A stretch of DNA of 64,000 nt from Alcanivoracaceae bacterium. Lineage in GTDB: Bacteria > Pseudomonadota > Gammaproteobacteria > Pseudomonadales > Alcanivoracaceae. The position numbers were made by a program, and so were the translations under genes. The stretch lies in assembly GCA_040235405.1 (NCBI GenBank), contig JBECKT010000051.1, positions 6,879-70,878 of the forward strand, written 5' to 3'. This document shows positions 36,242 through 59,941 of the stretch, piece by piece (the stretch's first letter is position 1; each line of letters starts with the position of its first letter). The notes below the pieces were generated by a model that saw only the letters and a list, made by a program, of their open reading frames with translations, made no database searches and was not told where the DNA came from.

Positions 36242-37314
36242 AAGCCAGCTCTTTGTTTTCGTGCGGCAAGTACTGCGGGAGAGTTGTCCGGTTTTTGCCA
36301 ACCGGACAACTGCTGCCCGATCAGTGATTGCAACGCGCTGATATGTGACGGCAATGCATTCAACGCCGGAATGTAGTGGTACTGCTCGCCGCCCGCCGCC
36401 ATAAAGTAGCCGCGATTCTCGACCTCGATTTCCTCGATCGTTTCCAGGCAGTCCGCAGCAAAGCCCGGGCAAAGCACTTGCACATGCCTGATGCCTTGCG
36501 CCGGCATTGCCTTCAGGGTTGCATCGGTATAGGGCTTGAGCCACTGCTCCCGACCAAAACGGGACTGGAAAGTGGTGACATATTGCTCAGAATTCAGGCC
36601 AAGACGCTCGGCTAGCAAGCGCGACGTTTTGTGGCATTCGCAGTGATACGGATCGCCATTATCCAGATACCGCTGCGGTACACCGTGGTAGGACAACACC
36701 AGCTTGTCGGGGCGGCCGTGCTGCTGCCAGTGCTGCTCGACCTGCCCTGCCAGAGCCTCGATGTAATCGGGGAAGTCATGGTAGTGACTGACAAAACGCA
36801 AATCCGGCAACCAGCGACGCCGGGTAAAATCCGCCGCCAGCGCATCGAAAGTAGACGCGCTAGTGGCAGCGGAGTATTGCGGGTACAGCGGCAACACCAG
36901 CAGCTGACGCACACCCTGCTGCTGCATTGATTCCAGCGTACTGCTGATTGATGGTTGTCCGTAGCGCATCGCGCACTCGACGATCAGATCATCACCCCAC
37001 GCCGGCTTCAGCGCTGCCCGCAGGGCATCGCGTTGGGCCAGCGTGTGCAACATCAATGGTGAGCCGGCTTCGGTCCAGACGCTCTGATAGGCGTGCGCCG
37101 AACGTCGCGGCCGAATACGCAGAATGATGCCATGGAGGATCAGGAACCATAACAGCCGCGGTACCTCTACCACTCGCGGGTCGGCAAGAAACTCGGCCAG
37201 ATAGCGACGCAGTGCCGGCGTAGTCGGCGCTTCCGGTGTCCCCAGATTGGTAATCAGCACGCCGATCCGGGCCGGTTGCTCATGGCGAAAGCCGGATTGT
37301 CCCCGATACTGCAT
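36238..37314 (-). CDS. hemH: Ferrochelatase
   Basis: IGVLITNLGTPEAPT, LVLPLYPQYSAATS and VLSYHGVP. Start chosen at ATG 37314. Confidence 0.92.
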   Translation of the reverse strand: MQYRGQSGFRHEQPARIGVLITNLGTPEAPTTPALRRYLAEFLADPRVVEVPRLLWFLILHGIILRIRPRRSAHAYQSVWTEAGSPLMLHTLAQRDALRAALKPAWGDDLIVECAMRYGQPSISSTLESMQQQGVRQLLVLPLYPQYSAATSASTFDALAADFTRRRWLPDLRFVSHYHDFPDYIEALAGQVEQHWQQHGRPDKLVLSYHGVPQRYLDNGDPYHCECHKTSRLLAERLGLNSEQYVTTFQSRFGREQWLKPYTDATLKAMPAQGIRHVQVLCPGFAADCLETIEEIEVENRGYFMAAGGEQYHYIPALNALPSHISALQSLIGQQLSGWQKPDNSPAVLAARKQRAGL

Positions 37315-37392
37315 AACCTGCCTCCACGCGATCACCGCGTTTTATCTGTTGCCTGTGGCCAAGTATAGCCATGACCGGTCAAGGGCGTGTCA

Positions 37393-39947: not shown

Positions 39948-40182
39948 AAGCGCATCCTCTCGCTTGATTTGGTAATGCCATCATCTTAGCTGTGATGGCA
40001 ATCACATTTCATCGCCTTAATCAGGGTGCGGCCCGGATTTTACAATTCACGCCAGCCGACTGTCTGATCGGGCCACCCGCCCGTCTGCTCTTGCTGCCGA
40101 TATTTCTCTGCAGGACCGTCCCCGGTCGCCGCCGCACTCGCCAGCAGGTACAATGCGCGCCCCCGCTGTTTCCGGATACCTG

Positions 40183-42489
40183 ATGTCTGCCCTGTCGATT
40201 CCCCGTCCCCGCACCAGCCTGTTCGGTTACCCCCGATACTGGGCGGAATGCTTTGGCACGGCGCCGTTCCTGCCGATGTCCCGGGCGGAGATGGACCAGC
40301 TTGGCTGGGATTCCTGCGACATCATCATTGTCACCGGCGATGCCTATGTCGACCATCCGTCATTCGGCATGGCAATTGTAGGCCGTTTGCTCGAAGCTCA
40401 GGGGTTCCGGGTCGGCATCATTGCCCAGCCGGACTGGACCTCGAAGGACGCCTTTATGGCGTTGGGCCGGCCGAACCTGTTCTTCGGCGTCGCTGCCGGT
40501 AACATGGATTCGATGATCAATCGCTACACCGCTGATCGCAAACCACGCTCCGACGACGCCTATACCCCGGGCGGCGAAGCCGGCAAGCGCCCGGACCGCT
40601 GCTCGCTGGTGTACTCGCAGCGCTGCAAGGAAGCCTGGTCGGATGTGCCGGTAATTCTCGGCGGCATTGAGGCGTCACTGCGCCGCATTGGCCATTACGA
40701 TTACTGGCAGGACAAGGTGCGCCGTTCCATCCTGCTCGACGCCACCGCTGATCTGTTGCTGTATGGCAATGCCGAACGCGCCGTGGTCGAAGTGGCCCAT
40801 CGTCTGGCCCGCGGCGAAACCATCGACAGCATCACCGATGTTCGCGGCACTGCCTTTATCCGTCGCGACACGCCGGAAGGCTTCTGGGAAATCGATTCCA
40901 CCCGAATCGACCGACCCGGCCGGGTTGATCGCATCATCAATCCCTACGTCAACACCCAGGAGATGGATGAATGTGAAGTGGAACGCCGTAACAACCCGAT
41001 GCTCGGCGTCAGCATCAACGACAACGGCGAACAAGTGGTGCAGTTGCTGCCGCACCCGAAACTGAAACGCGACCAGACCGTGATCCGCCTGCCATCGTTT
41101 GAAAAGGTACGCAACGATCCGGTGCTGTATGCCCACGCCAGCCGGGTACTGCATCTGGAAACCAACCCGGGCAACGCCCGCGCGCTGGTCCAGCGTCATG
41201 CTGAAATTGATGTCTGGCTGAATCCGCCGCCGATTCCGCTGACCACCGAAGAAATGGATTACGTATTTGATCTACCTTACGCCCGCTCGCCGCACCCGGC
41301 TTACGGTGATGCGAAAATTCCGGCCTGGGACATGATCCGCTTTTCCGTCAACATCATGCGCGGCTGCTTCGGTGGCTGCACCTTTTGCTCGATCACTGAG
41401 CACGAAGGTCGCATTATCCAGAACCGCTCGGAAGAATCGGTGCTGCGCGAAATCGAACAGATCCGCGACAAGGTCAAGGGCTTTACCGGCGTGATTTCCG
41501 ATCTCGGCGGGCCCACTGCAAACATGTACCGGATTGCCTGCAAAACCCCGGAAATCGAGGCAGCCTGCCGCAAGCCGAGCTGTGTTTATCCGGGCATCTG
41601 CGAAAATCTCAACACTGATCATTCGCACCTCACCCAGCTGTACCGCAAGGCGCGTAATATCAAGGGTGTGAAAAAAATCCTGATCGCTTCCGGCTTGCGT
41701 TACGATCTGGCAGTGAAAGACCCGGAGTATGTGCGCGAGCTGGTGACGCACCATGTCGGCGGTTATCTGAAGATTGCCCCGGAACATACCGAGCAGGGGC
41801 CGCTGTCGAAGATGATGAAGCCAGGTATCGGTTCCTACGATATTTTTCGCGAGATGTTTGAACGTTTTTCAAAAGAAGCCGGCAAGGAACAGTACCTGAT
41901 CCCCTACTTTATCGCTGCCCACCCGGGCACCACCGATGAAGACATGATGAATCTCGCACTATGGCTGAAGCGCTACGGTTTCCGTGCCGATCAGGTGCAG
42001 GCGTTCTATCCATCGCCGATGGCCAGCGCCACCGCCATGTATTACTCCGGCAAGAACCCGCTGCGCCGGGTGACCTATAAAAGCGATGCCATCGAGTCAC
42101 CGAAGACACCGGAGCAACGCCGCCTGCACAAGGCGTTCCTGCGTTACCACGACCCGAGAAACTGGCCGCTATTGCGCGAGGCACTCAAGCGCATGGGCCG
42201 TGCTGACCTGATCGGTGACGGCAAGCATCAACTGATTCCGAAAACCCAGCCGACCGATGCCCGCGACTATCAGGCGCCACGGCGAAAAAATTCCAGCGAT
42301 GCCCACCAGCGTCGCACCGGCCCCGGCAGCGCGCCGGCCAAAGGCAAGATCCTGACCCAGCACACTGGCCTGCCTCCGCGCGAGCAAACTGCCGACAAGG
42401 CAAGGCCTGCTGGCAGAGCAGCCAGTGGCGGGCGCAAGCCGCCGGGAAGTCCGCGCCAGCGGCCCGGTAAAAACAGAACACCCCACTAG
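40183..42489 (+). CDS. ygiQ: YgiQ-family radical SAM protein (UPF0313)
   Basis: [36 protein letters not shown], radical [12 protein letters not shown], and a basic low-complexity C-terminal tail. Start chosen at ATG 40183. Confidence 0.9.
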
Positions 42490-43736
42490 CGGGAACCATT
42501 AAACTGACGCATGGCGCGGAGAAACTCCTCGGCGCGGAAACGATGCTGATCCGACAGGCTCTGGTACAGGCCGTCCAGCGCCGCGCTATCACCCTGCAAT
42601 TGCTCGGTCAGCAATGCCATCAGCATCAGCACCTGCTCGGCGGTCATGTAGTCGTTAAAGGTTGCATCCAGAGTGTCTGCCTTCATGCGCTGGAGCAGCC
42701 GCCCGGCATCCGGGCCAGACAACTTGCCATTACGCAAGCGCACCAGAGTGTCATCAAGCTGGCGAATCAGTGCGCCACTGGCCTGCTGGATCGCCTCGCG
42801 GCCCTGCTGACTGGCGCCATGCAAACCGGCGACGCCGGTTTTCCAGCGCGCTGCGGCAGCCGGATCACTTGCCTCCAGCATCCAGCCCACCATCAGCAAA
42901 CTGCTGTCATTCAGCCGTACCGCGCCGGGCCGCAACTTGCCGGCGGCGCGTGGCCGCCATTTATCCGCATTCATCGGTGCATGGCAGGCGTGGCAGTCGA
43001 AGAATGCCAGCTCCGGCCACAGCGGCGTTGCCATAAACTGCTGGCCGCGCAAACCCTCGAGCACGTTGCGGGCGCTACGCAACTGCCCGGCCACCCATAG
43101 CTGCAGGGATTGCGGCGACTGTTTGCGGGCACGGTAAGCATCATCATCACGATGATGTGATGGCCACAGCCGGCTGTAGGTGGCCAGCTCGAACTGCAAC
43201 CGCGGGTGCCCGGCGCCCATGATGTCGTGACTGGCAAGCCGCTCACTGTCGCCGACGTGGCAAGCAACACAGACCGAGGCACGCACATCGGCATCCTGCA
43301 ACAGTGTCAGACCGCGGGCGATATTGTCCTCGTGGGTGACCCCCTTCTCCGTATGCGAGGACAGCCAGCGCCGGGAGCCACCGTGACAGGCTTCACAACC
43401 GACACCATCGGTCAGCTGGAAACGCGGGCCGCGTTGTTCCTTCGGCACATAATCACTGTGGCAAGCAAGACAGACCTTCGCTTCGTGAGCCGGACCGATA
43501 CCGAGCTTGGTAGCAATTTCCTTCGAATCACTATTGAGCAAAGTGTTGTAAGCGCCGGCATGAGGATCACGCTGCCCCCAGATCACATACTCGCTATGAA
43601 AAATATTGGCGCCACTGCGCTCGGTGCTGCTGCCATGGCAAACCGAAGAGGCACAACTGGCCACGCCCATATGTTTGTCTGCGGCCAGCACAACCCCGGT
43701 CACAACCAGCAACCCGAGCAGGATGAATCGTTTCAT
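42486..43736 (-). CDS. Periplasmic multihaem c-type cytochrome (4 CxxCH + 1 CxxxxCH) with a helical non-haem C-terminal half
   Basis: Signal peptide [18 protein letters not shown]. Motifs CASSVCH (CX4CH), CLACH, CEACH, CVACH and CHACH. The ATGA start/stop overlaps the upstream gene. Confidence 0.8.
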
Positions 43737-46700
43737 CGTTTGCCTCCGCTGCGGCTGACCTTGTCACTGACAAACCAGGGCTCACCCTTTTCATTCAGGA
43801 ACAGGCGGCGCATTTCTTCCAGTGTGAAAGGCCGCGAGCCATGCCGACCGAATACCGCCACCTGACCACCGGTCTCATCCACCGCCCGATCACGCTCAAG
43901 TCCACGTGACAACGACAACGCCGGATAGCGGGTTTTCGCCCTGGCGATCAACTGCGGCACCGGGGCCGGATTGAAGCCGTAGAAATTCGGCTGACTGGCC
44001 GGCGATGTTAACTGAAGCACTTTGAGGCCACCCTCACCATCGGCCACATAGGCAAATGCAGACGCATTGGTGCTGGCCACGATCACATCATGACTGTCCT
44101 GCAAGGCGCCCTCGGCAGTGAAGCGTTGATACAGCGACAGCTTCTCCGGATTCTCCATATCAATGATGACCAGACCATCCTTGCCGGCCGCAACATAGGC
44201 ATAAGCCCGGGCAATATGAATACCACGGGCCTGATCCAGGGCGATGGTGTTGTCCGGAATCAGGCTGGCCTGCTCCGGCAAGGTCACATCAATAGCGCTG
44301 ACACCACCGGCATGGCTGACCAGCAGATAGCGGAACTGCAAGGCACTGGCACGGACATCCTCAAGAGCAATCTGCCTCACCAGCTTCGGCGCCAATGGCT
44401 CATCCAGATTCAGTATCACCAGCGCCTTTGGTGTAGCGATATAGGCATAATGGCCACCGAGAATGACATGGCGGGCACCGTCCAGTACCCCGTTTTCATT
44501 CCAGGTAACGGCGCGCTCAAGGTGATTATTACGGAACTCGCCATCGGCAAAGGTGGTGATATCGGCAAGGATCAAACCTTCCTCGGCATCGGTAATCACC
44601 GCATAGGAATAGATCGGGTGGAACGGCTGCTCAAGGTTTTCCACTCGCATCAGGTCGCCGACGTTACGCTGTGGCGCCACCGGCTGGGTGGTCGCCAGTG
44701 CCATGCAGGTAGCGTTACGGCTTGGCACCCTGGCGTTGTGACCCAGCGGGCTGAACGGCGCGGTAATGATCCGCTGCGAGACGCCCTTGTTATCAATGCC
44801 GGCGATATCGTAAACGCGGAAGCCGTTCTTGCCTTCGGCGACATACAGATACTCACCGCGCATCTGCACACAACCGGCTCGATCACCGGCATGGCTGTAC
44901 TGCTCCGGCAAATCCAGATCACGGCGCAAGTGCTGCTGATACCAGTCCGGGTAGGCATAGCGATGCAGGTAGGAACCGTAAACGGCTTGCGGCTCGTCCC
45001 ACTCGGTCACCGCCACCGCCTGCAAACCACCCTCACCGCCCACCCAGGCAAACCGGCCGACAAAGTTGATGTAGTTGGTACCAAGCATCAACAGCTGCGC
45101 CATGATCGCATTGTTGTCATTGTCTTCGGACAGATGGCAATCGGTACAGGTCTTGGTTTCCGTACGCCGCTCGGTATGCGGATAGTGCGGATTAAATGCC
45201 TGTGAGCTGTAACCACTGGCCGATACCGGCGGCTGCTGGATATAGATGCGTTCACGGTTCGAGTTGGTAGAGCTTAATACCAATGCCGAGGTAGAACGGG
45301 TCGGCGCAATTCTGGCGTCATGCACCGGGCCACGCTTGCCGAGCATAAACATTTCGTCACGCGCCACCTGCGGATTGTAGGTGGCGTAGTTGCGGGTTTC
45401 TCCGCCTTCGTAATGATGTCGTTCGGTTTTCCAGTTCGCCTCAATCGGCAGGTGGCAGCCGCCGCAGGAGGTAGTCCAGGAGGTGTGGCAGGTATAACAC
45501 TCGAAGTCCTCGTCACGGTGGGCCCGCTGGCCGGATTTTACCGACAGCCCCCACGCCAGCGAGTTGGTATCGCGGCTCATCAGCTTGGCCCGGGCCGCCT
45601 TGGCATTGTACTGACCATGTTTCGGATTGACCGAGTCCTTGACCAGACTCATGGTCCACTCCAGCCCCGGCGTCAACAACGAACGCTGAATCAGTTTGCC
45701 GTTAACCCATTCAAAGCGCTTTTTACCATCCGGGTTGCGCAGTATCGACAGGTCCTGACCACCGGCTGGCGCGGCAGCGCCACTGGTGCGCAGGCTCGGA
45801 TAACTGTCCGCAGTGCCATGGCAGTCCTTGCAGCCAATTTCCACGGCATGACCTACCTCGCCGTACAGATGGCCATTGCCATGGCTGTCCTGACTGAAGT
45901 GGCAGTCCACACAGTGCATGCCGACATCGACATGAATCGAGGAAAGGTGCACCGCCTTCTTGAATTTTTCCGGATCCTCGGCAGAGACCTGATCGCCTTC
46001 GGCATCGAGCAGATTGCCTTCCCGGTCACGCTTGAACACCGCCCGGAAATTCCAGCCATGGCCATGGTAGTCGGCAAACTGGGTGTCTTTCAGCTTCGGG
46101 TTCATCTCCCAGACTGATGAGAGGAAATTCAGATCCCGCCATTTGCCGCGCGCCACCGCCCCTTCCGGATTGCGATCATAGACATCGCGCATTTCCTCGT
46201 CGCTCGGATAATGCTGCTTCTCCGGCCACATGAACGGCGCATCGGCTTCGTAATCCCACATGGTGTAACCGAGGTAGGTGTTCATGAACATGTTCGGCTG
46301 GTGCATGTGACAGACCATGCACTGGCTGGTGGGAATGGCGCGGGTAAACTGATGCTGGATCGGATGACCCGGCTCGTCTTTCGGAATCAGCGGGTCACGG
46401 CTGGCGCTTAATCCCCAGTGGCCATGTTTGGCATAGGGACCGCTGTGGCGCGGATCGCGATCATTGCCATACACCACATGGCAGGAGGCGCAGCCGGAGC
46501 TGCGGTAGTCGCCGGGCTGATCATTGGAGCCAAGGAACCACATCAGCGGATCATTGAGACGGGTTTTAGTGATATTGATCAGCGGCACGGCAATCCGTGC
46601 ACCAGTGCCGGCACCGCGATTCGATTGCTTCACATCCGGCCGGCCCGGTTCCTCCAAACGCTGGATCTGACCAAGTGAATTGGGAATGCCGATTTCCGGG

Positions 46701-47479
46701 AACAGGCTGTTGATATTGCGGCCACCGTCTTCGAACACCCGGAACACATCGGCGGGCTTGACGGTTTCCCAGGCCGGCAGCGGCAGCAGCGTTTTCAGTG
46801 CGCCGAAGCGATGGCTCATGTCTTCTGTCGGCACCATCAGTGGCGTGACCGCTGCCGGTTGTCCGTCGCGGCTATAGGCCTCGCCCAGGATGTAGCGCTT
46901 GTACGGCAAAATGCCGTTGTTATAGGAGGCGCCGCCCCAGAGCATGGCGCCGGTGGCCATAATTGAACGCTCGGCAGCAAGAATCTGCGGCATATGACAA
47001 CTGCCGCAGGCTTCACGAACAATGCGGTAATCGGACGGATTGACGAAGCGGATATATTCCGGCGCTTCCTTGTTCAGCAGGGTGTAACTGATCGGTGGAT
47101 TACTGCTGCGCGGCCAGCGCCATTTGTCGGCATAGTCTGGCAATACATGGGCCTGCTTCATCGCTTCCATAAAGGCCGGATCATCGCGATTGCTGTTCGC
47201 CGGCTTCTGCACACCGGCATTGCCACCATGACAATCGGTGCAGCCCAGGACCACCGCCGGGTTGGCGTGCATGGTCTTGCTATCGGAAGCGCCGTGACAG
47301 CTGCCGCAGCCACTGCTTTTGCGTACCGCTTCGGCGGGTGATTGCCAGGCCGGTGCCGATGGCGCTGCCACCCGGTTTTCCTGCTTGACCACCGGCGCCT
47401 CTACCGCCGGCAACAAAACAGGCAACAACAGCATTAGTGCCGTCATCCATGCCTGCCAGAGCTGAAGTCCGTGTCTCAT
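43733..47479 (-). CDS. Secreted decahaem c-type cytochrome fused to a C-terminal LVIVD-repeat beta-propeller
   Basis: Signal peptide. Ten CxxCH motifs: CGSCH, CTDCH, CGSCH, CASCH, CMVCH, CVDCH, CKDCH, CYTCH, CGGCH, CTDCH. In the last ~450 aa there are at least 6 LVIVD-type repeats (YLYVAEGKNGFRVYDI, EEGLILADIT, YAYIATPKALVILNLDEP, AYAYVAAGKDGLVIIDMENP, AFAYVADGEGGLKVLQL). Confidence 0.85.
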   Translation of the reverse strand: MRHGLQLWQAWMTALMLLLPVLLPAVEAPVVKQENRVAAPSAPAWQSPAEAVRKSSGCGSCHGASDSKTMHANPAVVLGCTDCHGGNAGVQKPANSNRDDPAFMEAMKQAHVLPDYADKWRWPRSSNPPISYTLLNKEAPEYIRFVNPSDYRIVREACGSCHMPQILAAERSIMATGAMLWGGASYNNGILPYKRYILGEAYSRDGQPAAVTPLMVPTEDMSHRFGALKTLLPLPAWETVKPADVFRVFEDGGRNINSLFPEIGIPNSLGQIQRLEEPGRPDVKQSNRGAGTGARIAVPLINITKTRLNDPLMWFLGSNDQPGDYRSSGCASCHVVYGNDRDPRHSGPYAKHGHWGLSASRDPLIPKDEPGHPIQHQFTRAIPTSQCMVCHMHQPNMFMNTYLGYTMWDYEADAPFMWPEKQHYPSDEEMRDVYDRNPEGAVARGKWRDLNFLSSVWEMNPKLKDTQFADYHGHGWNFRAVFKRDREGNLLDAEGDQVSAEDPEKFKKAVHLSSIHVDVGMHCVDCHFSQDSHGNGHLYGEVGHAVEIGCKDCHGTADSYPSLRTSGAAAPAGGQDLSILRNPDGKKRFEWVNGKLIQRSLLTPGLEWTMSLVKDSVNPKHGQYNAKAARAKLMSRDTNSLAWGLSVKSGQRAHRDEDFECYTCHTSWTTSCGGCHLPIEANWKTERHHYEGGETRNYATYNPQVARDEMFMLGKRGPVHDARIAPTRSTSALVLSSTNSNRERIYIQQPPVSASGYSSQAFNPHYPHTERRTETKTCTDCHLSEDNDNNAIMAQLLMLGTNYINFVGRFAWVGGEGGLQAVAVTEWDEPQAVYGSYLHRYAYPDWYQQHLRRDLDLPEQYSHAGDRAGCVQMRGEYLYVAEGKNGFRVYDIAGIDNKGVSQRIITAPFSPLGHNARVPSRNATCMALATTQPVAPQRNVGDLMRVENLEQPFHPIYSYAVITDAEEGLILADITTFADGEFRNNHLERAVTWNENGVLDGARHVILGGHYAYIATPKALVILNLDEPLAPKLVRQIALEDVRASALQFRYLLVSHAGGVSAIDVTLPEQASLIPDNTIALDQARGIHIARAYAYVAAGKDGLVIIDMENPEKLSLYQRFTAEGALQDSHDVIVASTNASAFAYVADGEGGLKVLQLTSPASQPNFYGFNPAPVPQLIARAKTRYPALSLSRGLERDRAVDETGGQVAVFGRHGSRPFTLEEMRRLFLNEKGEPWFVSDKVSRSGGKR

Positions 47480-47485
47480 AATGCC

Positions 47486-49216
47486 TCAGTACGTCAATAT
47501 CAGGTTGCCGAGAATCGAATAGCGCGAGTCCCGCTCGAACAGGTCGTCAAAACCTTCGCCGGGCAGCAACTGCGCCACCGACAAACGGCCGACAATGTTC
47601 TGGATCGCCAGCGGCCGCCAGATAATGGCAGCGGAAATATCCCAACCGATTTCCCGGTCGATATTGTCCTGCTGGCGTAACACCTCGATCACTTCGGTGC
47701 GATCAAAGGCAAGATGATTGGCGTTGAAACTGAGCCGGGCAGTCGGGGTCAGGTCCAGATCGGCACCAACACCGAGCAACCGCAGTCCCGGATTGGTGAA
47801 GTTGGACTGGCCGTGCTCTTTCGACGAACGCAGGTTCGGCAACAAACCATTACGCGTTGACAGGGTTACCCCGCCGCCGGCAATAAAGGGCACGCCCTGA
47901 CGGATCCAGAAGCTGGTGTCGGCACCGGCAATAATCGGGTTCTCGAACACCGCATCGAAGCCGGTCTCGACTTTATCAAACGGATTGCGATCACCGGAAG
48001 CATGCACACCGGTGGCGCGCAGACGAATCCAGTCAAAATCAATACCCGCTTCAAAGGCAGCAAAGCTGGCGCGCACCTCGGTGGTCTCATCGTTCATGAC
48101 CCCGGGGGCGTTGCGGCCACTGGCGGCGTACAACGACGTGGTCAGATTCAGGCGGCCAAGATGGCCATCACCGTTGTAACCCAGATAGGTGACGTCATAG
48201 CTGCGCGGCACTTCCCGGCCAAGCGAGGCGGGACGGGCAATAAAGCCGTTATCGTCATAGAAGAAACTGTCCTCCCGATTACGGTTATGCAGCAGGCTGA
48301 ACTGGCTGATAAACCCCAGCTTGAGAAAATCCTGCCAGTACAGGTTGGCAACGAAAACATCATCGTCGCGGAAACGGGCGGTAACATCGTTCAGGCCGCT
48401 GTTGGTGTCTTTTTCCAGACGCCGGAACCAGGCCAGGTTGTACTGGAAGATATTGTTGTCCCGGGTGCCGAACAGGCGCACACCGAACGGGCTGTCCTGA
48501 AACAGAAAGCCGCGAAAATCCGCATTGAACGGCTGGATGCCAACGCGAATACTGTCGAAGTCGTATCGGTCGGAGACATTACGGATGTGGTAGTCAACAA
48601 AAGCGCCCTGCACGCCGACATGGCCATCGGTACGGGTATCGCCGTCACGCGGGTCGATATACAGGGCACGGACCTCCTCCACCTCAGTGCGGTTGAAGTT
48701 AAACACCGGGATAAAGCGGAACTCCCAGTCCGGCGGTCGAAACACGGTATCGCCACGTAACCAGACCAGTTCCACCAACAGGTTCTGATTGAAAGTCACC
48801 TGCTCGCCACTGCCGAACACATCAATATCACCGCTGTCGCCGGTGGTCTGGTTGCCTACCGGGGTGGGAATATCACGCAGCTCCAGCACGGTATCGGATA
48901 CTGCGGTCAGCGAGAAGAACCATTCGCCCCGGACCGGCTTGTCACCCTTTAAGACATTACGTTGGTAGGGATTCCACAGGCTGTGGTTGTAACCCGGCAG
49001 GCTATCAACAATGCGCCAGCGATCCGGCACTGCCTGCAACGGCTGATCCTGAAACAGCGGCGCGGCGGGAATGGCATTGTCGTCGCACAGCACTTGCTGA
49101 CGCGCTTCAACCTTTTTGCCCGGCAGACGAATTTGCGGCTGCTGATCCGGCTCAGGACATTCCGCCTGTGCCAGCAGCGGCATCAGCAGCAACATGAAAA
49201 GCGGGAGGCGATGCAT
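47486..49216 (-). CDS. Probable outer-membrane beta-barrel protein
   Basis: Signal peptide MHRLPLFMLLLMPLLAQA. Alternating hydrophobic beta-strand patterning runs throughout, rich in aromatics, Gly, Asn and Asp. The C-terminus ends with an aromatic residue (...GNLILTY). I cannot assign a family with confidence. Confidence 0.6.
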   Translation of the reverse strand: MHRLPLFMLLLMPLLAQAECPEPDQQPQIRLPGKKVEARQQVLCDDNAIPAAPLFQDQPLQAVPDRWRIVDSLPGYNHSLWNPYQRNVLKGDKPVRGEWFFSLTAVSDTVLELRDIPTPVGNQTTGDSGDIDVFGSGEQVTFNQNLLVELVWLRGDTVFRPPDWEFRFIPVFNFNRTEVEEVRALYIDPRDGDTRTDGHVGVQGAFVDYHIRNVSDRYDFDSIRVGIQPFNADFRGFLFQDSPFGVRLFGTRDNNIFQYNLAWFRRLEKDTNSGLNDVTARFRDDDVFVANLYWQDFLKLGFISQFSLLHNRNREDSFFYDDNGFIARPASLGREVPRSYDVTYLGYNGDGHLGRLNLTTSLYAASGRNAPGVMNDETTEVRASFAAFEAGIDFDWIRLRATGVHASGDRNPFDKVETGFDAVFENPIIAGADTSFWIRQGVPFIAGGGVTLSTRNGLLPNLRSSKEHGQSNFTNPGLRLLGVGADLDLTPTARLSFNANHLAFDRTEVIEVLRQQDNIDREIGWDISAAIIWRPLAIQNIVGRLSVAQLLPGEGFDDLFERDSRYSILGNLILTY

Positions 49217-51147
49217 TATTTGCCTCCGCAGGGTGTCTGTTCATTGCTGTCGAGAAACGGTGCCTGCGGACACTGCACATAACGCAGCCGGGTGCCGTGC
49301 GGGGCCAGCTGGTCGGCGCGCATCATTACCGGCGCATTGTTGATGCTGCCAAGCAGCTCACCGGCCTGATGCACGGACAGAAACGAAATCATGTCATCCT
49401 GATCAATGCCGTCACCGGATACCCCAATGGCACCGACCAGTGTGCTGCCACGGTAGATCGGCACACTGCCGGGGAAAATCTGGGTGCCATTCGCCACCGG
49501 GTCGACATTGCCAGCGGATGTCACACGACTGATGGCGCTGCACCCCTCGGCGACATCAACACCACTCAGGCCGGCGGCAAAAGCAACATGACCAATAAGC
49601 TGGTTATAGACCAGATCCAGCTGCAGGCCGGTGGAGAACGGACTCCACTGCCCTTCCGGTTTCGATAAAGGTCCGGGCGGCGCACTGCGCAGACCATCCG
49701 GGAAATACGGCCGCGACAGATTACCGCCGGCGCGATCACTAAAAGCGTAGGCGCCATCGGCAAGCGCTGAAGGCAGATCCAGAAAGGTGCGTAGCGCATC
49801 AACGTAATCACCGATATCAACACTGGTTGCCACGGTCGGCGCACCAGCGACCAGTACCGGGCCAAGATAATCCGCCGTCGGCAGCGCCTGTAACTCTGCG
49901 GCCGCCTGCGTGCCTGAATAAAATGCAGCAGTACGCGCCTTCTGCAACGACACATCAGTACCGAACAGTGGCGCATCGCGGGTCCGCACCAGCCCCAGCA
50001 CCACACCATTACGATCCACCACACTGATGCTGACCCGTGCCTGACTTCCAAGTGGCCGACGAATCTGGGCCCGGGCGCGACTGGCAATCAACAGCGCCTG
50101 ATCCAGCACTGCAGTGACTTCAGTCTGGGTCAGCGCACCGGGGCCATCACTGGCGGCGACTGGCGGGAAGCGCGGCGTGTCGGTGGCATCTACCAACACG
50201 AAGGCATCGCGGCCGGGGAAAAAGTTTTCGGTATCGGCACGAATACCGGAACCGCTTTGGGTAAATGTCTGACCGGCGATAATGCCGCCACCGGCATTGA
50301 AGTAACCCGGCACACTAACCAGCGCACCGGTCAGACTGGCAAACGCCGGCACCGGCAGAGACCGGGTCTGCACCATCGCCACGCTCATATCGCTGTAACG
50401 CAGCTGCTTGCCTTCAACGGTGATGCGTTCGGCACGACGGTCCGCCGGCGCCAGCAAACCGCGACTACCAGCCAGCGCCACCACTTCATCCAGTGACTGA
50501 TCGCGATCAAACAGACTGTCATCGAAACTGTAGCGATCATCCACCACTACACCGATACCGCCGATAACGGTGCCATCGCGATACAGCGGGAAGCCGCCCG
50601 GATCAGCGGACAACCCCAGCGGAGCATGCTTGGGGCCGTGGCTGCCATCGGTCACACGCACCGTCAGATCGGAACAGGCCAGCTGGGAGAACTGCACGCC
50701 AAACAGGGGCCCGGCCGGCTGATTGCGCTCGCCCGGATTGAAATGCTCCTGCACGATCTGGCTGGCGGTGCGTGAACTGAAGGCATTGCCCTCGCTGGAC
50801 AGATAAGCGCCGGTGACCGCCTTGCTGATCGCTGCCAAGGTGGCCGGAATAAAGCTGATATTTTCCAGACCGCCGCTGACCGGATAGGGCGATGCAATAG
50901 TTACCGCATCAACTGCGCCAACCATCTGATACACGGCCAGAATATTGCCAACCCGGTCAGACACGGCAATGGTAGCCGCGACGCCACGCTGATCCGCCTC
51001 CAGTGCAGCCGCTGCAATAATGCTTTCGACATCCGCAGCGGAGAGAAAGCTGGCCGGGCTGACACAGCTGCCATCACAGCCGCCATTCGATAACGAATCG
51101 CCGCCACAACCGGCCAGCAGCAGACACAGCCCGATCAGCCGTTTCAC
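49216..51147 (-). CDS. Lipoprotein with two tandem GlcG/HbpS-like (DUF336, haem-binding/haem-degrading superfamily) domains
   Basis: Lipobox LLLAGC after a GTG start. Domain 1: ATIAVSDRVGNILAV...GGFPLYRDGTVIGGIGVVVD. Domain 2: SISVVDRNGVVLGL...LQKARTAAFYS...GSVPIYRGSTLVGAIGVSGDGIDQDD. Compare E. coli GlcG: GGVPVVVDGQIIGAVGVSG. Confidence 0.7.
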   Translation of the reverse strand: MKRLIGLCLLLAGCGGDSLSNGGCDGSCVSPASFLSAADVESIIAAAALEADQRGVAATIAVSDRVGNILAVYQMVGAVDAVTIASPYPVSGGLENISFIPATLAAISKAVTGAYLSSEGNAFSSRTASQIVQEHFNPGERNQPAGPLFGVQFSQLACSDLTVRVTDGSHGPKHAPLGLSADPGGFPLYRDGTVIGGIGVVVDDRYSFDDSLFDRDQSLDEVVALAGSRGLLAPADRRAERITVEGKQLRYSDMSVAMVQTRSLPVPAFASLTGALVSVPGYFNAGGGIIAGQTFTQSGSGIRADTENFFPGRDAFVLVDATDTPRFPPVAASDGPGALTQTEVTAVLDQALLIASRARAQIRRPLGSQARVSISVVDRNGVVLGLVRTRDAPLFGTDVSLQKARTAAFYSGTQAAAELQALPTADYLGPVLVAGAPTVATSVDIGDYVDALRTFLDLPSALADGAYAFSDRAGGNLSRPYFPDGLRSAPPGPLSKPEGQWSPFSTGLQLDLVYNQLIGHVAFAAGLSGVDVAEGCSAISRVTSAGNVDPVANGTQIFPGSVPIYRGSTLVGAIGVSGDGIDQDDMISFLSVHQAGELLGSINNAPVMMRADQLAPHGTRLRYVQCPQAPFLDSNEQTPCGGK

Positions 51148-52820
51148 GGCATCACCTCGGGCAGGTCGGCATGATCCAGTTCAAACTGGTGATAGTTGTG
51201 ACAGCTGATGCAACCGGAAAGCAGCCCCTGCTTCTGCTGCTGGCCGACATGACATTCCTGACAGACGGCAATGTCCGGCATCAACACATCTGCAGTCTCC
51301 ATGGACTCGTTGGCGGCATGGCAGTCGGCGCATTCGGTTTGGGTGTGACGAACATGGGGAAATTCGCCGGAGACAAACCAGTTTTCATTCAGCCGTACCG
51401 GTTTGACAAACCACTGGGGCGGCTGCTCGCTGACCCTGTCCACTTCATGACAGCTGACACAGGCACGGCGCTCGAACATATCCTCTGCCACCGCCTGACT
51501 CTTTTTTTCCACCCAGGCGACGCCTTCGCGCTGCAACTGGCTGAGGTTATCGCGCTGGCCCGGTCTTAATGCCCGGATATCACCGGCGTCAGCGCGGTCC
51601 TGGATAAAGCGGCTGCTGTAGTACTCACGCAGATTAGCCAGCACCTGATCCGGCTTACCATGCGGCACGACCCGATTCGGATCGACTGGATCAAACGCCA
51701 GGCCATGGCAGCGGGCACAGTGTTGCTCCATCTTCACCGGCGCCATGTTAATGCCGTCCAGTGCCATCTCATGGCAACTGTCGCAACTCAGCACTTCCCA
51801 GTCGCCGTCATTATTCTTGATGCCTTCGACATCCAGATGCCCGGCGTGATCAAATTTCAGGTTGCTGTTATCGTGCAGGGATTCATCTACCGTCAGCCGC
51901 GGGCTCTGCAACCACTCGCGACTATCGTCCTGCCACTGCAGCATGCTCAGGCGGAACGCTGGATGATCGGCATGGAAGTCCGTTGCCTTGCCGACCTGTG
52001 GCTCACTGCCCATGCGCTGGTCAAGGCTGGCATGGCAATCGGCACAGAAGCGCTGATCCTCAAACACCATGCGCTGCTCGCCGTTATGTTCATGATGACA
52101 AGAGGCACAGCGCTCGCCATCAAACAGACCGGCATCCGGATGCCCTGCCGGCACATGCAAAGCGGTTTCTTCATGACAGGCAACGCAGGTATCGTTGCTG
52201 ACTTTCTCAAACGGTTTGGTGTGACAGGCCTGACAATCCTTGCCAATGGTGCTGTGCACCGAATGCAACTCGCCACTCAACCACAGGCTGTCATCCGGCA
52301 ACGGCGTATTACGCAGCACATTCTGAAATTCCGGCTTTAGCGTCACCAGTGCCGGCAACAACAGCGCTGCAACCAGCAACACAAGGAACAGCGCCCAGGC
52401 CCAGCGACGCGGACGCCAGAGCGTCAATGCATCCAGCCGGGTAACAAACTTCGCCGGATCAATCGACGGCGCTTCCTGTTGCTCCAGCACCTCCAGACTG
52501 AGCGCCAGATCAACACCGTCCGGCGCGGCAATCACGATCAGGCGATAGTCACCGATCAGGATCTGGTCACCGGTATTCAGCACCGCCATCTTGCAGCTGC
52601 GACCATTTACCGTGATGCCGGTACTGGCCAGCGCACGAATCCGGAACTGACCGGCACTCAGGGAGATTTCCGCGTGCTGGTAGGCAACCCGGTCGCCGGG
52701 CAACAACAATTCCTGATCGGTACCACGACCTATGCTGAGCTGATCAACCGCCAGCTCTTCATCCTTGTAGCTTCGATTCTGACCGCTGCCAGCGCCGAGA
52801 CGGCGTATCAATACATACAT
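51144..52820 (-). CDS. FHA domain - single TM helix - periplasmic decahaem c-type cytochrome
   Basis: N-terminal FHA-like LSIGRGTDQELLLPGDRVAYQHAEI...ITVNGRSCKMAVLNTGDQILIGDYRLIV. TM helix RRWAWALFLVLLVAALLLPALV (positive-inside). Ten CxxCH motifs: CQACH, CVACH, CASCH, CADCH, CDSCH, CARCH, CVSCH, CADCH, CQECH, CISCH. The start is ATG 52820 or TTG 52850. Confidence 0.8.
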   Translation of the reverse strand: MYVLIRRLGAGSGQNRSYKDEELAVDQLSIGRGTDQELLLPGDRVAYQHAEISLSAGQFRIRALASTGITVNGRSCKMAVLNTGDQILIGDYRLIVIAAPDGVDLALSLEVLEQQEAPSIDPAKFVTRLDALTLWRPRRWAWALFLVLLVAALLLPALVTLKPEFQNVLRNTPLPDDSLWLSGELHSVHSTIGKDCQACHTKPFEKVSNDTCVACHEETALHVPAGHPDAGLFDGERCASCHHEHNGEQRMVFEDQRFCADCHASLDQRMGSEPQVGKATDFHADHPAFRLSMLQWQDDSREWLQSPRLTVDESLHDNSNLKFDHAGHLDVEGIKNNDGDWEVLSCDSCHEMALDGINMAPVKMEQHCARCHGLAFDPVDPNRVVPHGKPDQVLANLREYYSSRFIQDRADAGDIRALRPGQRDNLSQLQREGVAWVEKKSQAVAEDMFERRACVSCHEVDRVSEQPPQWFVKPVRLNENWFVSGEFPHVRHTQTECADCHAANESMETADVLMPDIAVCQECHVGQQQKQGLLSGCISCHNYHQFELDHADLPEVMP

Positions 52821-52824
52821 GGCA

Positions 52825-53715
52825 TCACCAGTAGAAGAACACGCTGACAATATGCGCCGTCAGCGTTGCCAGCAGTGCCAGCGTCAGCGGGATATGGCAG
52901 TACAACCAGATCTCCATCAGCCCCTGCAGACGGATATCTTTAAGTAACTGTTTCACCAGTCTGGCTTTACGCGAGACCAGATCGATCAGCTCCTGCAGCA
53001 GCGCCGCTTCCTTGGGATCCGTGCTGCGTGACAGCAACCCGGTCAACTCATCCAGTAAGCGTTGCTGGTGCGAATTACTGACCCGCTTCCAGCTCTTCTG
53101 CTTTTTCCTGACCTCGCTGATCATCATTCGCGAACGGTCACGCCCACCGAGTTGCTGCCAGACGCCACCGCCAACCTGAAACAATTGAATGGCGGAAATC
53201 ACCATCCGGTCTGCCGGTGAGCCGAGACCTTCAACAATCAGACTGGCCTTGCGATCAATATCGGCAATCTCGCGGAAGATCAGATCGCGAGTCATGCCAT
53301 CACGGTTGCGGGTAATACGATTCGGGTAACGCCAGTACACCCAGCCACCATAAAAGCCGCTGACGATAACCAGCACCATCAACAGCCAGGCCAGTGTGTG
53401 AATGTTCAAACCAAACTGAAAGCCGCTATGCAGCGTGCCCACCACCAGCAGTGAACCGCCCAGGTAAACGTGCGCAGACAACCAACCCTTGACGCTGCCG
53501 ATACGTGAGTAATAGGCGCGCTTGCGCACCCCGAACAGGGTCAGCCAGACAATCAGCAATGCGGCAATAGTGCCAAGGGTATAACCCAGCCAGGTACCGC
53601 CATTAGGCAACCCGATCGGTTCGTGCCAGACGTAGGCAACAACACTGGCCAGTACCAGCACCAGCGCAAACCAGAACCAGAAGCCGCCACGGTGAGAGAG
53701 GAAAGAGCCGTGCAT
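52825..53715 (-). CDS. Five-TM membrane protein with two H-x13-H pairs (candidate di-haem cytochrome b)
   Basis: The ATG at 53715 lies 7 nt after GGGAGGA. TM3 is AHVYLGGSLLVVGTLH (His codons at 53470-53472 and 53428-53430). TM5 is CHIPLTLALLATLTAH (His codons at 52894-52896 and 52852-52854). A ~130-aa soluble helical loop lies between TM4 and TM5. Confidence 0.6.
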   Translation of the reverse strand: MHGSFLSHRGGFWFWFALVLVLASVVAYVWHEPIGLPNGGTWLGYTLGTIAALLIVWLTLFGVRKRAYYSRIGSVKGWLSAHVYLGGSLLVVGTLHSGFQFGLNIHTLAWLLMVLVIVSGFYGGWVYWRYPNRITRNRDGMTRDLIFREIADIDRKASLIVEGLGSPADRMVISAIQLFQVGGGVWQQLGGRDRSRMMISEVRKKQKSWKRVSNSHQQRLLDELTGLLSRSTDPKEAALLQELIDLVSRKARLVKQLLKDIRLQGLMEIWLYCHIPLTLALLATLTAHIVSVFFYW

Positions 53716-53717
53716 GC

Positions 53718-56099
53718 TCAATCCTCCCTGACCAGTTCAATAAACTGCTCCGGACTGATCCGCACCGCCGCGCCGGTCGGGCAGGCGCGCACACAGGCCG
53801 GGCCACCCTTGAGGTTGGCACACATGTCACACTTCACTGCTCGCTTCGGTGCGTCCTTGGCCTTGACCTTTTTGTGCTCGGCGCCGAACAGCACCCGGCT
53901 CCACAGCCCCGGCTGGGAACCACCGATCGGCGCCATCTGGATCACACCATAGGGGCAGTTGCTTTCACAGTTACCACAGCCGATGCAGTTGTCGGCAATC
54001 ACCACCTCGCCACTGGCATTACGACTGATCGCATCCGGCGGGCAATCTTTCATGCAATGCGGATGTTCGCAGTGACGACAGGAAGTCGGCACATGGATTG
54101 AGGCATAGCTTGGCCCGGCCTCACGATTCAGCCGCGAGGTACCACCGTGGGTGGAAGCGCAGGCGGTCTCACAGTTATCGCAACGCACGCACAGGGATTC
54201 GTCGATCAGCAACACATCGGTGGCTTCGCCCAGACCCTGACGCATCAGGAACGACAGCAGCTCACCACCTTCCGAGGAAGATTCCATGCTGGCATTGGCA
54301 CGCAGCCGCGCCTGCAGCTGCGTCTGCACCTGCGCCTTCAGTTTCGGGTCTCGCTCCAGCAAGGCGAGGAACGGCTCGCTTTTCATGACCACGGTTTCGG
54401 TCGGCACCACGGCGCGTACCGAAGCGGTACGGCGGGAATTACCAAGCAACCCCATTTCACCGACATATTTGCCCGCCGGCACATAGGACAGCACCACCTC
54501 GCGGCCTTGCAGGTAACGGGAAACCGTCAGTGAACCACGCCGCACCAGATGCAGCTCGTCACCGCTCTCGCCTTCGGCGAACAGGACCTCGCCGGGAGCG
54601 TACTGACGCAGCTCTGCCGAGTTCACCAGATCGGCCAGATCCTCCAGATTGGCGTTCGGCGCAAACTGGGAATGAATCGCACGCAGGATAAACACCTGAT
54701 CAATCCGCCGCCGCACTTCATCCACCGACGACAGCAATCGCAACATGGTCCGGCGCGGGGTTTCCACCAGCACACAATAGCGACCGGCATAAACCGTGGC
54801 ATTACGACGCCGGCCGGAAATCAGGCCCATCTCGCCAAAGAACTGACCTTCGCCAATGGTAACCCGTTTGCCGGTCTGTTCATCAATCTCGACCTCCACC
54901 GAACCTTCCACGACTGAGTAGAACGAGTTGGTGTAGTCATTGCGAGAGAAGATCACCTCGCCCGCCTTCGGCATGTGCACTTCGCTTTCCAGAATCAGCT
55001 CACGGAAACGCAGGCTGTTGACGGGACCGAAACAGAGCACATTGTTTTTGATCTTCTCCAGCGTCTGCTCGACGTCCAGTCCGAATGGCAAGCCAGAGAA
55101 CTTCTTTGCCAGCAAGCCATGATCCACCGGCTTGATATCGCGACCGAGAATATGCTCGATCACTTCATAACCCTGATTCATGGCCTGCTTGATCAGCGGA
55201 TAACCAGCCAATGCGCCGATCACATACAAGCCCGGCACATTCGATTCGTACTGATGAGTCAGTTCCGGCACCGCATTGGTTGATTTATTGGGAAACTGGA
55301 TGCCACAGGATTCGACAAAATCACGCGGCGGAATAGCGCCCAACCGGGCAATGATCCGATCCACTGGCACCTGCACTTCACCTTCGCCGGTACTCAGCGA
55401 CACCTGGGCCCGATGCTCACCATTACCCTGCACTTCAATACTACGCAGACTGCTGTTGAAAAATACCCTGATACGGCCGCGCTCAATGGCATCCTCAAGC
55501 AGGCTCAGGTTTCCTTCTTTGGCACGGGCAAATTCGTCGCGGCGATTGATCAGCGACACCTTGTTCTGGCGGGCCAGTGCCAGCGCGTTTTCAATCGCCG
55601 AATCCCCGGCGCCGACCACCATGATTTCTTCGTTCTGATATTCGTCCGGATCATCCAGCTGGTATTGCACAAATGGCTGGTCTTCACCCGGCACACCGAG
55701 CTTGCGTGGATTACCCTGCAGACCAATGGCCAGCACCACATGCTTTGCTCGCACGCTTTTGCCGCTGCGTGTCTGCAGCACGAAATCACCGCGTTGGCCA
55801 CTGATGGCCGTGACATCAGCATTCCAGCCAACCTTGATGCCAAGTTTTTTGGCATTCTTCAGCCAGACGGCAAGGATGTCCTCACGACTGCCAGCATCAA
55901 ATGGCAGGCTGCTACGCAACGGCAGAAGGCCTGGCTCCGCCATGACGTGCTTGCCTTTCTGATAGCGCTGAATGGTATTGGCCAGATGGGTCGTGCTTTC
56001 CAGCAACAGGTGCGACAACCCCAGTTCAGCGGCACGGCCAGCGGCGCTGAGGCCCGCCGGGCCGGAGCCGACAATAACAACTTCAAAACGGTTTTCCAT
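53718..56099 (-). CDS. Cytoplasmic fusion protein: FAD/NAD(P)-dependent pyridine-nucleotide-disulfide-type oxidoreductase + 2 cyclic-nucleotide-binding domains + four-cluster [4Fe-4S] ferredoxin
   Basis: Dinucleotide motifs VVIVGSGPAGLSAAGRA and IMVVGAGDSAIENA. cNMP motifs FFGEMGLISGRRRNATVYA and YVGEMGLLGNSRRTASVRA. Cys motifs CVRCDNCETAC, CRHCEHPHCMKDCP, CIGCGNCESNCP and CDMCANLKGGPACVRACP. No signal or Tat motif. Confidence 0.85.
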   Translation of the reverse strand: MENRFEVVIVGSGPAGLSAAGRAAELGLSHLLLESTTHLANTIQRYQKGKHVMAEPGLLPLRSSLPFDAGSREDILAVWLKNAKKLGIKVGWNADVTAISGQRGDFVLQTRSGKSVRAKHVVLAIGLQGNPRKLGVPGEDQPFVQYQLDDPDEYQNEEIMVVGAGDSAIENALALARQNKVSLINRRDEFARAKEGNLSLLEDAIERGRIRVFFNSSLRSIEVQGNGEHRAQVSLSTGEGEVQVPVDRIIARLGAIPPRDFVESCGIQFPNKSTNAVPELTHQYESNVPGLYVIGALAGYPLIKQAMNQGYEVIEHILGRDIKPVDHGLLAKKFSGLPFGLDVEQTLEKIKNNVLCFGPVNSLRFRELILESEVHMPKAGEVIFSRNDYTNSFYSVVEGSVEVEIDEQTGKRVTIGEGQFFGEMGLISGRRRNATVYAGRYCVLVETPRRTMLRLLSSVDEVRRRIDQVFILRAIHSQFAPNANLEDLADLVNSAELRQYAPGEVLFAEGESGDELHLVRRGSLTVSRYLQGREVVLSYVPAGKYVGEMGLLGNSRRTASVRAVVPTETVVMKSEPFLALLERDPKLKAQVQTQLQARLRANASMESSSEGGELLSFLMRQGLGEATDVLLIDESLCVRCDNCETACASTHGGTSRLNREAGPSYASIHVPTSCRHCEHPHCMKDCPPDAISRNASGEVVIADNCIGCGNCESNCPYGVIQMAPIGGSQPGLWSRVLFGAEHKKVKAKDAPKRAVKCDMCANLKGGPACVRACPTGAAVRISPEQFIELVRED

Positions 56100-58439: not shown

Positions 58440-58469
58440 TTTGTTGCATGACATACCCGGCGGTGGTCC

Positions 58470-59939: not shown

Positions 59940-59941
59940 CC

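Follow-up and report, generated by a model that had tools for sequence, protein, structure and literature searches.

Among the described systems closest to the locus studied here are the porin-cytochrome clusters of the MtrCAB, PioAB and MtoAB type, with which it shares the clustering of an outer-membrane barrel with decahaem c-type cytochromes, the presence of periplasmic relays, and a large decahaem cytochrome encoded beside the barrel gene. Beta-propellers have been found in such surroundings before: in Desulfovibrio ferrophilus IS5, Tenderiales (UetH/UetI) and Geobacter (Gmet_0556), genes for NHL-propeller proteins neighbour those for outer-membrane cytochromes, and a role in docking or stabilisation has been proposed for these propellers (PMC5815863; 10.1101/2022.05.06.490989). 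LVIVD repeats, which are a different type of propeller repeat, were defined computationally in surface proteins of archaea and bacteria, and their function is not known (PMC2447325). Here we analysed a stretch of 64,000 nucleotides (nt) of contig JBECKT010000051.1 (assembly GCA_040235405.1) from an Alcanivoracaceae bacterium, hereafter the window, the minus strand of which carries a seven-gene module that we label A to G. Our main subject is gene F, which encodes a decahaem cytochrome c of 1248 amino acids (aa) with a C-terminal LVIVD propeller, and the system to which its product may belong. The coordinates of all features are collected in Table 1.

A decahaem cytochrome c fused to an LVIVD propeller

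Gene F is a single intact open reading frame (ORF) with an ATG start, preceded at a distance of about 5 nt by a GAGG ribosome-binding site located immediately past the stop codon of the preceding gene. CxxCH occurs exactly ten times in the encoded protein, at aa 58, 80, 158, 330, 387, 523, 550, 661, 672, and 778. A preliminary description of this DNA, made from the sequence alone, had placed ten motifs in the first ~800 aa, and this is borne out, with all ten lying within aa 58–782. Twenty of the 22 cysteines of the protein are CxxCH cysteines, and when the protein was shuffled 20,000 times no shuffle contained more than one such motif. The Pfam model Cytochrom_c3_2 matched F with 28.6 bits (cut-off 25). 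The N-terminus (MRHGLQLWQAWMTALMLLLPVLLPAVEA, with the cut before P) reads by eye as a Sec-type signal peptide, and the signal-peptide region contains no cysteine. Many conserved CxxCH motifs together with a Sec export signal identify F, as far as its sequence can, as a multihaem cytochrome c. The haem spacing had been called wide in the preliminary description; the value of ~78 aa per haem in F stands, but it is not exceptional beside MtrC, OmcA, and UndA, which have about 67–77 aa per haem.

Membership in the LVIVD family was judged by a score above the Pfam gathering threshold, tandem repeats of ~42 aa and a propeller fold; F showed the first 2 and is predicted to have the third. The PF08309 model matched the whole protein with 58.6 bits (cut-off 20.2) and its C-terminal fragment with 66.4 bits, and 4 of the repeats passed separately. 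By motif, 7 LVIVD-type repeats were counted (aa 806–835, 873–900, 955–985, 1007–1035, 1046–1075, 1089–1120, and 1138–1168), in agreement with the at least 6 C-terminal repeats announced previously; the 2 peptides quoted at that time were found at aa 1092–1111 and 1141–1160. In an AlphaFold2 model of aa 49–1248, built with 74 homologues as input and without haems, the repeat region formed approximately 7 four-stranded antiparallel blades with a predicted local distance difference test (pLDDT) score mostly above 90 (predicted template modelling score of the model, 0.77). Comparison of the model with the Protein Data Bank (PDB) by Foldseek returned beta-propellers only, with cytochrome cd1 nitrite reductase first (E value 6e-8), and gave no fold assignment for the haem domain, which is modelled at low confidence. 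The match to the choice-of-anchor B family TIGR04312 (27.8 bits) remained below its 100-bit cut-off. A C-terminal LVIVD propeller, as the preliminary description had it, is thus what both the Pfam score and the structure prediction indicate.

The F family proved to be large. In a homology search with F, at least 7,964 clusters (built at 90% identity) gave matches, and the best 120 matches were 1230–1325 aa long, collinear over 95–100% of the query and 65–95% identical to it. An identical protein is present in the public collection, where it clusters with proteins from Alcanivoracaceae metagenome-assembled genomes. When a single genome was scanned for each species, at least 598 genomes, from Gamma-, Beta-, and Alphaproteobacteria, encoded a full-length relative; overall, collinear full-length relatives measure ~1230–1330 aa. 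Cultured carriers in the species-genome scan include Parahaliea maris, Fontimonas, Spectribacter, Limnobacter alexandrii, and Sphingoaurantiacus capsulatus, to which the homology search added Oceanicoccus sagamiensis, Dasania marina, and Haliea; Alcanivorax sp. 1008 is a further cultured carrier. Halieaceae, Alcanivoracaceae, Woeseiaceae, and Spongiibacteraceae are among the carriers that are abundant in the sea, and freshwater and soil Beta- and Alphaproteobacteria also carry F. Relatives are named "hypothetical protein", "LVIVD repeat-containing protein" or "multiheme c-type cytochrome" in their source collections. When 1.84 billion representatives were searched exhaustively with HMMER, 868 matches fell below 1e-30, some of them full-length at 40–50% identity, and a profile of distant members defined a second clade, at 40–53% identity, from Wallbacteria, Rokubacteria, Acidobacteria, Calditrichaeota, KSB1, and Riflebacteria. 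All members of this second clade bear both the haem domain and the propeller.

In a 69-sequence alignment of both clades all ten haem sites were kept, haem 3 being bound by CxxCH in one clade and by CxxxxCH in the other. Thirteen histidines outside these motifs are conserved across the alignment, 3 more than ten bis-His haems need, and long invariant non-haem motifs (CHMHQPN, DYHGHGW, and GHPxxH) are found as well. Candidate distal haem ligands in F are His71, 111, 372, 376, 393, 472, 474, 511, 516, 533, 654, 689, and 768, and Met521. A lipobox was absent from 113 of 120 clade-1 proteins, and the remaining 7 were only loosely lipobox-like. By all these comparisons the fusion of the haem domain with the propeller is real, old and widespread. 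That F is an artefact, either of 2 genes joined by a sequencing or assembly error or of chance motifs, found no support and has practically no chance of being correct; the identical public protein, the full-length relatives in several phyla, the shuffles and the conservation of all ten sites exclude it.

A few distant members carry additional elements at their ends. In the clade-2 homologues P0413, P0411, P0422, P0512, and P0401 a C-terminal hydrophobic helix is followed by an Arg/Lys cluster, an arrangement that may act as a sorting signal or as an anchor in the membrane; one helix-bearing member of this clade is labelled LPXTG by JGI, and ~10% of clade-2 members have a lipobox instead. Such an anchor or lipobox would tether these proteins to a membrane. 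The distant homologue P0141 (1648 aa) contains 28 CxxCH motifs, with a ~18-haem N-terminal extension ahead of the conserved core and the propeller.

The haem domain itself matched little. Searches of PDB sequences with the single F protein or with a 74-sequence profile returned nothing for this domain, Pfam matched the whole domain with short generic CxxCH models only, and 5 sub-fragments of F searched against Pfam at E values up to 10 gave sub-threshold generic CxxCH hits, with no match for the insert at aa 165–330. The MtrC/MtrF domain PF22113 scored 19.9 bits on F (cut-off 30), the OmcA/MtrC model TIGR03507 of NCBIfam did not match, and the DmsE/MtrA model TIGR03508 gave only a sub-threshold hit on G (21 bits, cut-off 192) and none on C or F. 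The only named family with a significant match to F is ExtM (NF040943, 52.7 bits), and this match is confined to a dihaem segment of ~50 aa (aa 513–564, haems 6–7) that spans profile positions 258–309 of 599 and stays far under the 800-bit equivalog cut-off. All 10 clade-2 members tested also matched the ExtM model (best E value 1e-27), in the same local segment of ~50 aa where this was shown. Full-text literature searches (LVIVD with cytochrome, propeller with decaheme, FHA with multiheme, and similar combinations) returned no description of the F family. Altogether, no Pfam or NCBIfam family, solved structure or paper was found that covers the F haem domain, and on these searches F belongs to no described family.

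The seven-gene module and its surroundings

The module runs on the minus strand from 56099 down to 42486, and its genes are joined by overlaps of 1–4 nt or by a 6-nt gap, with 4-nt overlaps at A/B, C/D, and F/G and the gap between E and F. The order A-B-C-D-E-F-G was found in essentially all of the 83 proteobacterial loci with enough flanking sequence, and in Betaproteobacteria gene A is placed after G. E adjoins F in 79 of 79 assessable loci. The preliminary description had mentioned a neighbouring barrel and had missed that F belongs to a seven-gene module, the first gene of which encodes a cytoplasmic flavoprotein of the NAD(P)H type. The D-E-F trio is also kept in Acidobacteria, Wallbacteria, and KSB1, as are G, B, C, and a core of cyclic nucleotide monophosphate (cNMP)-binding and Fe-S domains, and in Acidobacteria a NuoF-like flavoprotein takes the place of the TrxR-like one. 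Genes for a PP2C phosphatase and a double-FHA protein lie beside the module in ~20 of 86 loci. Type II secretion system (T2SS) genes were adjacent in 4 of these 86 loci only, and linkage to T2SS as a general feature of the module was therefore rejected.

Conservation was compared as identity to the window proteins, first within Proteobacteria and then to other phyla. F reached 62–71% and 48–53%, E 49–66% and 41%, D 45–61% and 30–37%, A 41–64% and 31–36% (core), B 35–54% and 26–30%, G 34–54% and 29–37%, and C 28–44% and 23–28%. Across proteobacterial classes F keeps 64–69% identity, and the corresponding values for C and G are 26–40% and 29–45%. Judged by these values, F is the most constrained component of the module.

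Gene A encodes a cytoplasmic protein composed of a TrxR/FNR-like flavoprotein (aa 4–300), 2 cNMP-binding domains resembling those of PKA-R (aa 325–600), and a HycB/HydN-like polyferredoxin (aa 630–790). This fused architecture is unusual; in other phyla the cNMP and Fe-S core stands alone or beside a NuoF-like flavoprotein. Gene B has a TTG start, which is uncertain, and its ORF as called overlaps gene C by 26 nt. No Pfam, other family or PDB match was obtained for B. Five of its histidines (His84, His98, His108, His276, and His290) are invariant in 50 homologues, and 4 of them form the pairs His84/His98 and His276/His290, each 14 residues apart within one helix. Because of these invariant pairs and their spacing, we infer that B is a dihaem-b transmembrane electron carrier. 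Ten haems are present in 54 of 60 homologues of C, and some lineages encode the FHA domain separately from the cytochrome. The only mention in the literature that we found of FHA combined with a multihaem protein is a preprint on Ferrigenium, which calls the combination previously unreported (10.64898/2026.01.22.701106). D matched PF03928 with 78.8 bits in 3 stretches and has a lipobox (LLAGC) and 4 conserved cysteines; a role of D as a His-ligated haem carrier was not supported, as no histidine is conserved among its homologues.

The AlphaFold2 model of E consists of 18 long strands, and Foldseek placed AlgE at the top (E value 6e-18), followed by the 18-stranded OccK/OprD porins; relatives of E in UniRef are named "Alginate export". 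E had no Pfam match and contains no CxxCH. From its model, E looks like a solute channel of the AlgE/OprD type and not a passage for haems. The ~70 aa between strands 13 and 14 (aa 406–478) are very highly conserved (...SGD.NPFD...FENP..AG.D.S...RQ...LRSSKEHGQSNFTNPG) and modelled at low confidence; they may form an internal plug or constriction loop that sets what passes the channel. G has 4 CxxCH motifs and one CxxxxCH, and these sites are invariant in 57 homologues. The module thus holds 25 c-type haem sites, 10 in C, 10 in F, and 5 in G.

Table 1. Features of gene F and of its partner genes, with positions in the window
Feature	Position	Strand	Basis
Gene F: 1248-aa decahaem cytochrome c with C-terminal LVIVD propeller	43733..47479	minus	ORF, motifs, Pfam, full-length homologues
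Sec signal peptide of F, aa 1–27, without lipobox	47399..47479	minus	sequence inspection and hydrophobic segment aa 5–33
Haem domain of F, aa 28–800	45080..47398	minus	CxxCH motifs, alignment; large conserved non-haem inserts without Pfam family
Haem sites 1–5 of F	47294-47308, 47228-47242, 46994-47008, 46478-46492, 46307-46321	minus	CxxCH
Haem sites 6–10 of F	45899-45913, 45818-45832, 45485-45499, 45452-45466, 45134-45148	minus	CxxCH
Predicted seven-bladed LVIVD beta-propeller of F, aa 801–1190	43910..45079	minus	PF08309, AlphaFold2, Foldseek, repeat map
LVIVD repeats 1–4	44975-45064, 44780-44863, 44525-44617, 44375-44461	minus	motif
LVIVD repeats 5–7	44255-44344, 44120-44215, 43976-44068	minus	motif
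Conserved C-terminal tail of F, aa 1191–1248, motif RDRxVDExGxQ...RxGxRP	43736..43909	minus	at least 95% conserved, both clades
Gene A: 793-aa cytoplasmic protein	53718..56099	minus	Pfam/NCBIfam matches
Gene B: ~298-aa membrane protein, five hydrophobic helices, start uncertain	52825..53721	minus	hydropathy
Gene C: 568 aa, cytoplasmic FHA, one transmembrane helix, periplasmic decahaem, start uncertain	51144..52850	minus	CxxCH, Pfam, hydropathy
Gene D: 643-aa lipoprotein, HbpS/GlcG-like (DUF336) domains	49216..51147	minus	PF03928, lipobox
Gene E: 576-aa predicted outer-membrane AlgE-like beta-barrel, immediately upstream of F	47486..49216	minus	AlphaFold2, Foldseek, UniRef names
Gene G: 416-aa secreted c554-like pentahaem cytochrome, start overlaps F stop by 4 nt	42486..43736	minus	CxxCH, Pfam PF13435

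Several neighbours in the window were considered as parts of the module, namely a TPR protein, YgiQ, a DUF945 protein, ferrochelatase, and a 268-aa ORF, and were rejected because they are not conserved beside the module elsewhere. The YgiQ radical-SAM gene (40153–42489, plus strand) is convergent with the end of the module, and ferrochelatase (36238–37335, minus strand) lies ~5 kb from the haem-rich operon. A putative mutagenesis cassette of the ImuA-ImuB-DnaE2 type lies at 57633–63145 on the plus strand. It would consist of the 268-aa ORF, an ORF of 489 aa resembling Y-family polymerases (Pfam IMS), and a 1109-aa polymerase III alpha subunit of the DnaE type, which follow one another; the last 2 ORF calls overlap by ~120 nt. 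TamA and TamB, of the translocation and assembly module, are encoded as a pair at 6214–11417 (plus strand), and the remaining genes of the first 30 kb have housekeeping roles (ProRS, RimO-like, UbiB/ABC1, and SelO), apart from several ORFs that had no Pfam match (2446–3747, 4452–5648, and 14420–15676).

Proposed electron route and the readings that compete with it

We tentatively favour, with somewhat less than even confidence, the reading that F is a periplasmic terminal oxidoreductase close to the outer membrane, enzyme-like rather than a simple wire, in a self-contained trans-envelope system made up of the 7 gene products. Electrons from cytoplasmic NAD(P)H would enter at the flavin adenine dinucleotide of A and pass to its [4Fe-4S] clusters, with the tandem cNMP domains gating this entry allosterically. 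B would then take the electrons over the inner membrane, probably via 2 b-haems, to the inner-membrane-anchored decahaem protein C, the FHA domain of which, together with the products of the PP2C and FHA genes of other loci, may act as a phosphorylation switch. Such tight control is plausible because the route drains reducing power. From C, pentahaem G would pass the electrons on to the ten haems of F, and F would reduce an acceptor that arrives via the 18-stranded channel E, so that either substrate or product would cross E. In this scheme the propeller would be a non-haem docking or substrate-binding module which, together with the C-terminal tail, keeps F in place, either on the periplasmic side of E or on D. 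Docking of F on the barrel is a possible arrangement. The preliminary description had offered, as one alternative, that the propeller is a plug in or on the neighbouring barrel; a plug inside it is unlikely, since a barrel predicted to have 18 strands is too narrow for a seven-bladed propeller of ~45–50 Å or for a multihaem domain.

The 13 conserved histidines, the invariant motifs, the conservation of F, and the absence both of a lipobox from the proteobacterial proteins and of a linkage to T2SS all lean towards an enzyme, and none of them is decisive. The high conservation of F relative to its partners fits a catalytic or terminal component better than an interchangeable wire. Several points weigh against this assignment. 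The same 13 histidines could simply make all ten haems bis-His, as in a wire. The combination of 25 c-type haems with an obligatory outer-membrane barrel also resembles a conduit across the outer membrane. No His or Cys of the propeller is conserved across both clades in the alignment, and no obvious metal or cofactor site was seen there. The haem domain was modelled with pLDDT mostly between 30 and 70, as is expected of a model without haems. The direction of electron flow is suggested only by the domain types and by the aerobic lifestyle of the hosts, most of which are aerobic heterotrophs. Finally, it was in cell-surface proteins that LVIVD repeats were originally described (PMC2447325).

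A second reading takes F as the surface-exposed terminal cytochrome of an extracellular conduit, comparable in function to MtrC or OmcA. F would be exported over the outer membrane, with E as the crossing point, and minerals, polymers or partner cells would be the binding targets of its propeller. We consider this reading rather unlikely. In its favour, an outer-membrane barrel gene always adjoins F, C and G form a long chain of 10 and 5 c-type haems, and the haem density of F is near that of MtrC, OmcA, and UndA. LVIVD repeats are a typical feature of proteins predicted to lie on the surface (PMC2447325), separate NHL propellers are encoded next to the outer-membrane cytochromes of Desulfovibrio ferrophilus (PMC5815863) and Tenderiales (10.1101/2022.05.06.490989), a lipobox or a C-terminal anchor resembling a sorting signal is present in part of clade 2, and the 18 extra N-terminal haems of one distant member are wire-like. 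However, an 18-stranded barrel without CxxCH cannot house a multihaem domain, and nothing that carries haem and could thread the barrel is apparent. Proteobacterial F also lacks a lipobox, only 4 of 86 loci have adjacent T2SS genes, the MtrC/MtrF model scored below threshold and the OmcA/MtrC model did not match, the conservation of F is unusually high for a surface protein, and its hosts are mostly aerobic heterotrophs.

Quite unlikely in our view is a reversed chain, in which F would oxidise a periplasmic or extracellular donor, such as Fe(II), Mn(II) or a reduced S or N compound that enters via E, and electrons would flow through G and C to the inner membrane, with A and B serving as a regulated sink or as a reverse-electron route. 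The module encodes no link to a terminal oxidase or to quinone, and its sole cytoplasmic partner is a flavoprotein of the NAD(P)H/ferredoxin type, the reduction of which from the periplasmic side would be energetically unfavourable with most donors. The module is also found in very many ordinary heterotrophs. In favour of this reading, the hosts include Limnobacter and Spectribacter hydrogenoxidans, which are capable of lithotrophy, the membership of G in the c554 family (PF13435) recalls the relay from HAO to c554, and the Ferrigenium preprint casts its FHA-nonahaem protein as an uptake wire for Fe(II) oxidation (10.64898/2026.01.22.701106). A further idea, which we regard as equally improbable, is that the module is an envelope-spanning counterpart of the NADPH-oxidase/ferric-reductase logic, gated by cNMP and by phosphorylation (FHA/PP2C), that exports NAD(P)H electrons by way of a dihaem-b protein and 25 c-type haems to E and F at the outer membrane. 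F would then reduce an external or channel-delivered oxidant, which could be O2 (yielding extracellular superoxide), Fe(III), Mn(III/IV) complexes or oxidised organic matter. If this were true, F would be the first LVIVD-propeller protein with a defined job, and the NAD(P)H-dependent extracellular redox chemistry of common aerobic heterotrophs in the sea and in soil would be explained.

With F as the terminal oxidoreductase that we favour or otherwise, the family is large, very strongly conserved and without a described function, and in organisms that are not regarded as electroactive its module seemingly forms a connection from NAD(P)H in the cytoplasm to the outer membrane. The preliminary description had proposed that the fusion gives the LVIVD repeat family a testable functional context; the architecture has held and is conserved, and it places the repeat in a concrete redox setting. 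Knowing the acceptor of F would assign a function to the LVIVD propeller and could expose an overlooked redox process in oxic environments. It would also bear on a new trans-envelope architecture that brings together an 18-stranded channel, a fused propeller-cytochrome, and cNMP/FHA gating.

Comparison with described systems

Compared with the MtrCAB-type clusters, the barrel of the module is predicted to be 18-stranded and AlgE-like instead of having about 26 strands, the proteobacterial F is not a lipoprotein and carries a fused propeller, and the input is a cytoplasmic NAD(P)H flavoprotein with a His-pair membrane protein instead of a quinol dehydrogenase such as CymA. On the 4 traits compared, which were barrel size, the MtrA/DmsE model, the MtrC/OmcA model, and the lipoprotein signal, the module falls outside the Mtr family, as judged from its genes and models. 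The NHL systems resemble it in that a propeller is genetically tied to multihaem cytochromes and to an outer-membrane barrel. They differ in that the NHL propellers are separate polypeptides, whereas the propeller of F is of the LVIVD type and covalently fused, and the fusion is kept across phyla.

Among enzymes, cytochrome cd1 nitrite reductase shares with F the fusion of a c-haem domain to a propeller, in this case in a periplasmic enzyme; hydrazine synthase and the quinohaemoprotein dehydrogenases are looser parallels. However, cd1 has 8 blades that bind haem d1 through conserved His/Tyr, and a single c-type haem in a class-I domain, while F has 7 LVIVD blades, ten c-type haems and no conserved propeller histidine; in the Foldseek comparison the propeller of F and cd1 were 11–12% identical, with a target-normalised TM-score of 0.39–0.46. 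ExtM, which is encoded in a selenite/tellurite reduction operon of Geobacter, shares with F the local dihaem segment but is without a propeller.

The input half of the module has its own counterpart. In Ferrigenium straubiae a cluster described as novel and of unknown function comprises a cytosolic [4Fe-4S] protein, a five-helix membrane protein without recognised motifs, and a nonahaem protein with one helix and a cytoplasmic FHA domain (10.64898/2026.01.22.701106). Compared by description only, this trio is like A, B, and C in type, and differs in having nine haems rather than ten. The cluster adjoins nirK and an SHP-like gene, and the account given in the preprint mentions no genes like D, E, and F (10.64898/2026.01.22.701106), which suggests that A, B, and C may be a portable input module and D, E, F, and G a specific output. 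The Hmc/Tmc complexes and the NOX/ferric-reductase dihaem-b exporters are similar in general plan, with a cytoplasmic Fe-S/flavin module, a His-paired membrane protein and a periplasmic multihaem protein; no sequence relationship of the module to either group was detected in Pfam, NCBIfam, and PDB searches. Taken together, the kind of process is a known one, as the system works like a porin-cytochrome or Hmc-type trans-envelope chain, and what is new is a widespread multihaem system of unusual architecture.

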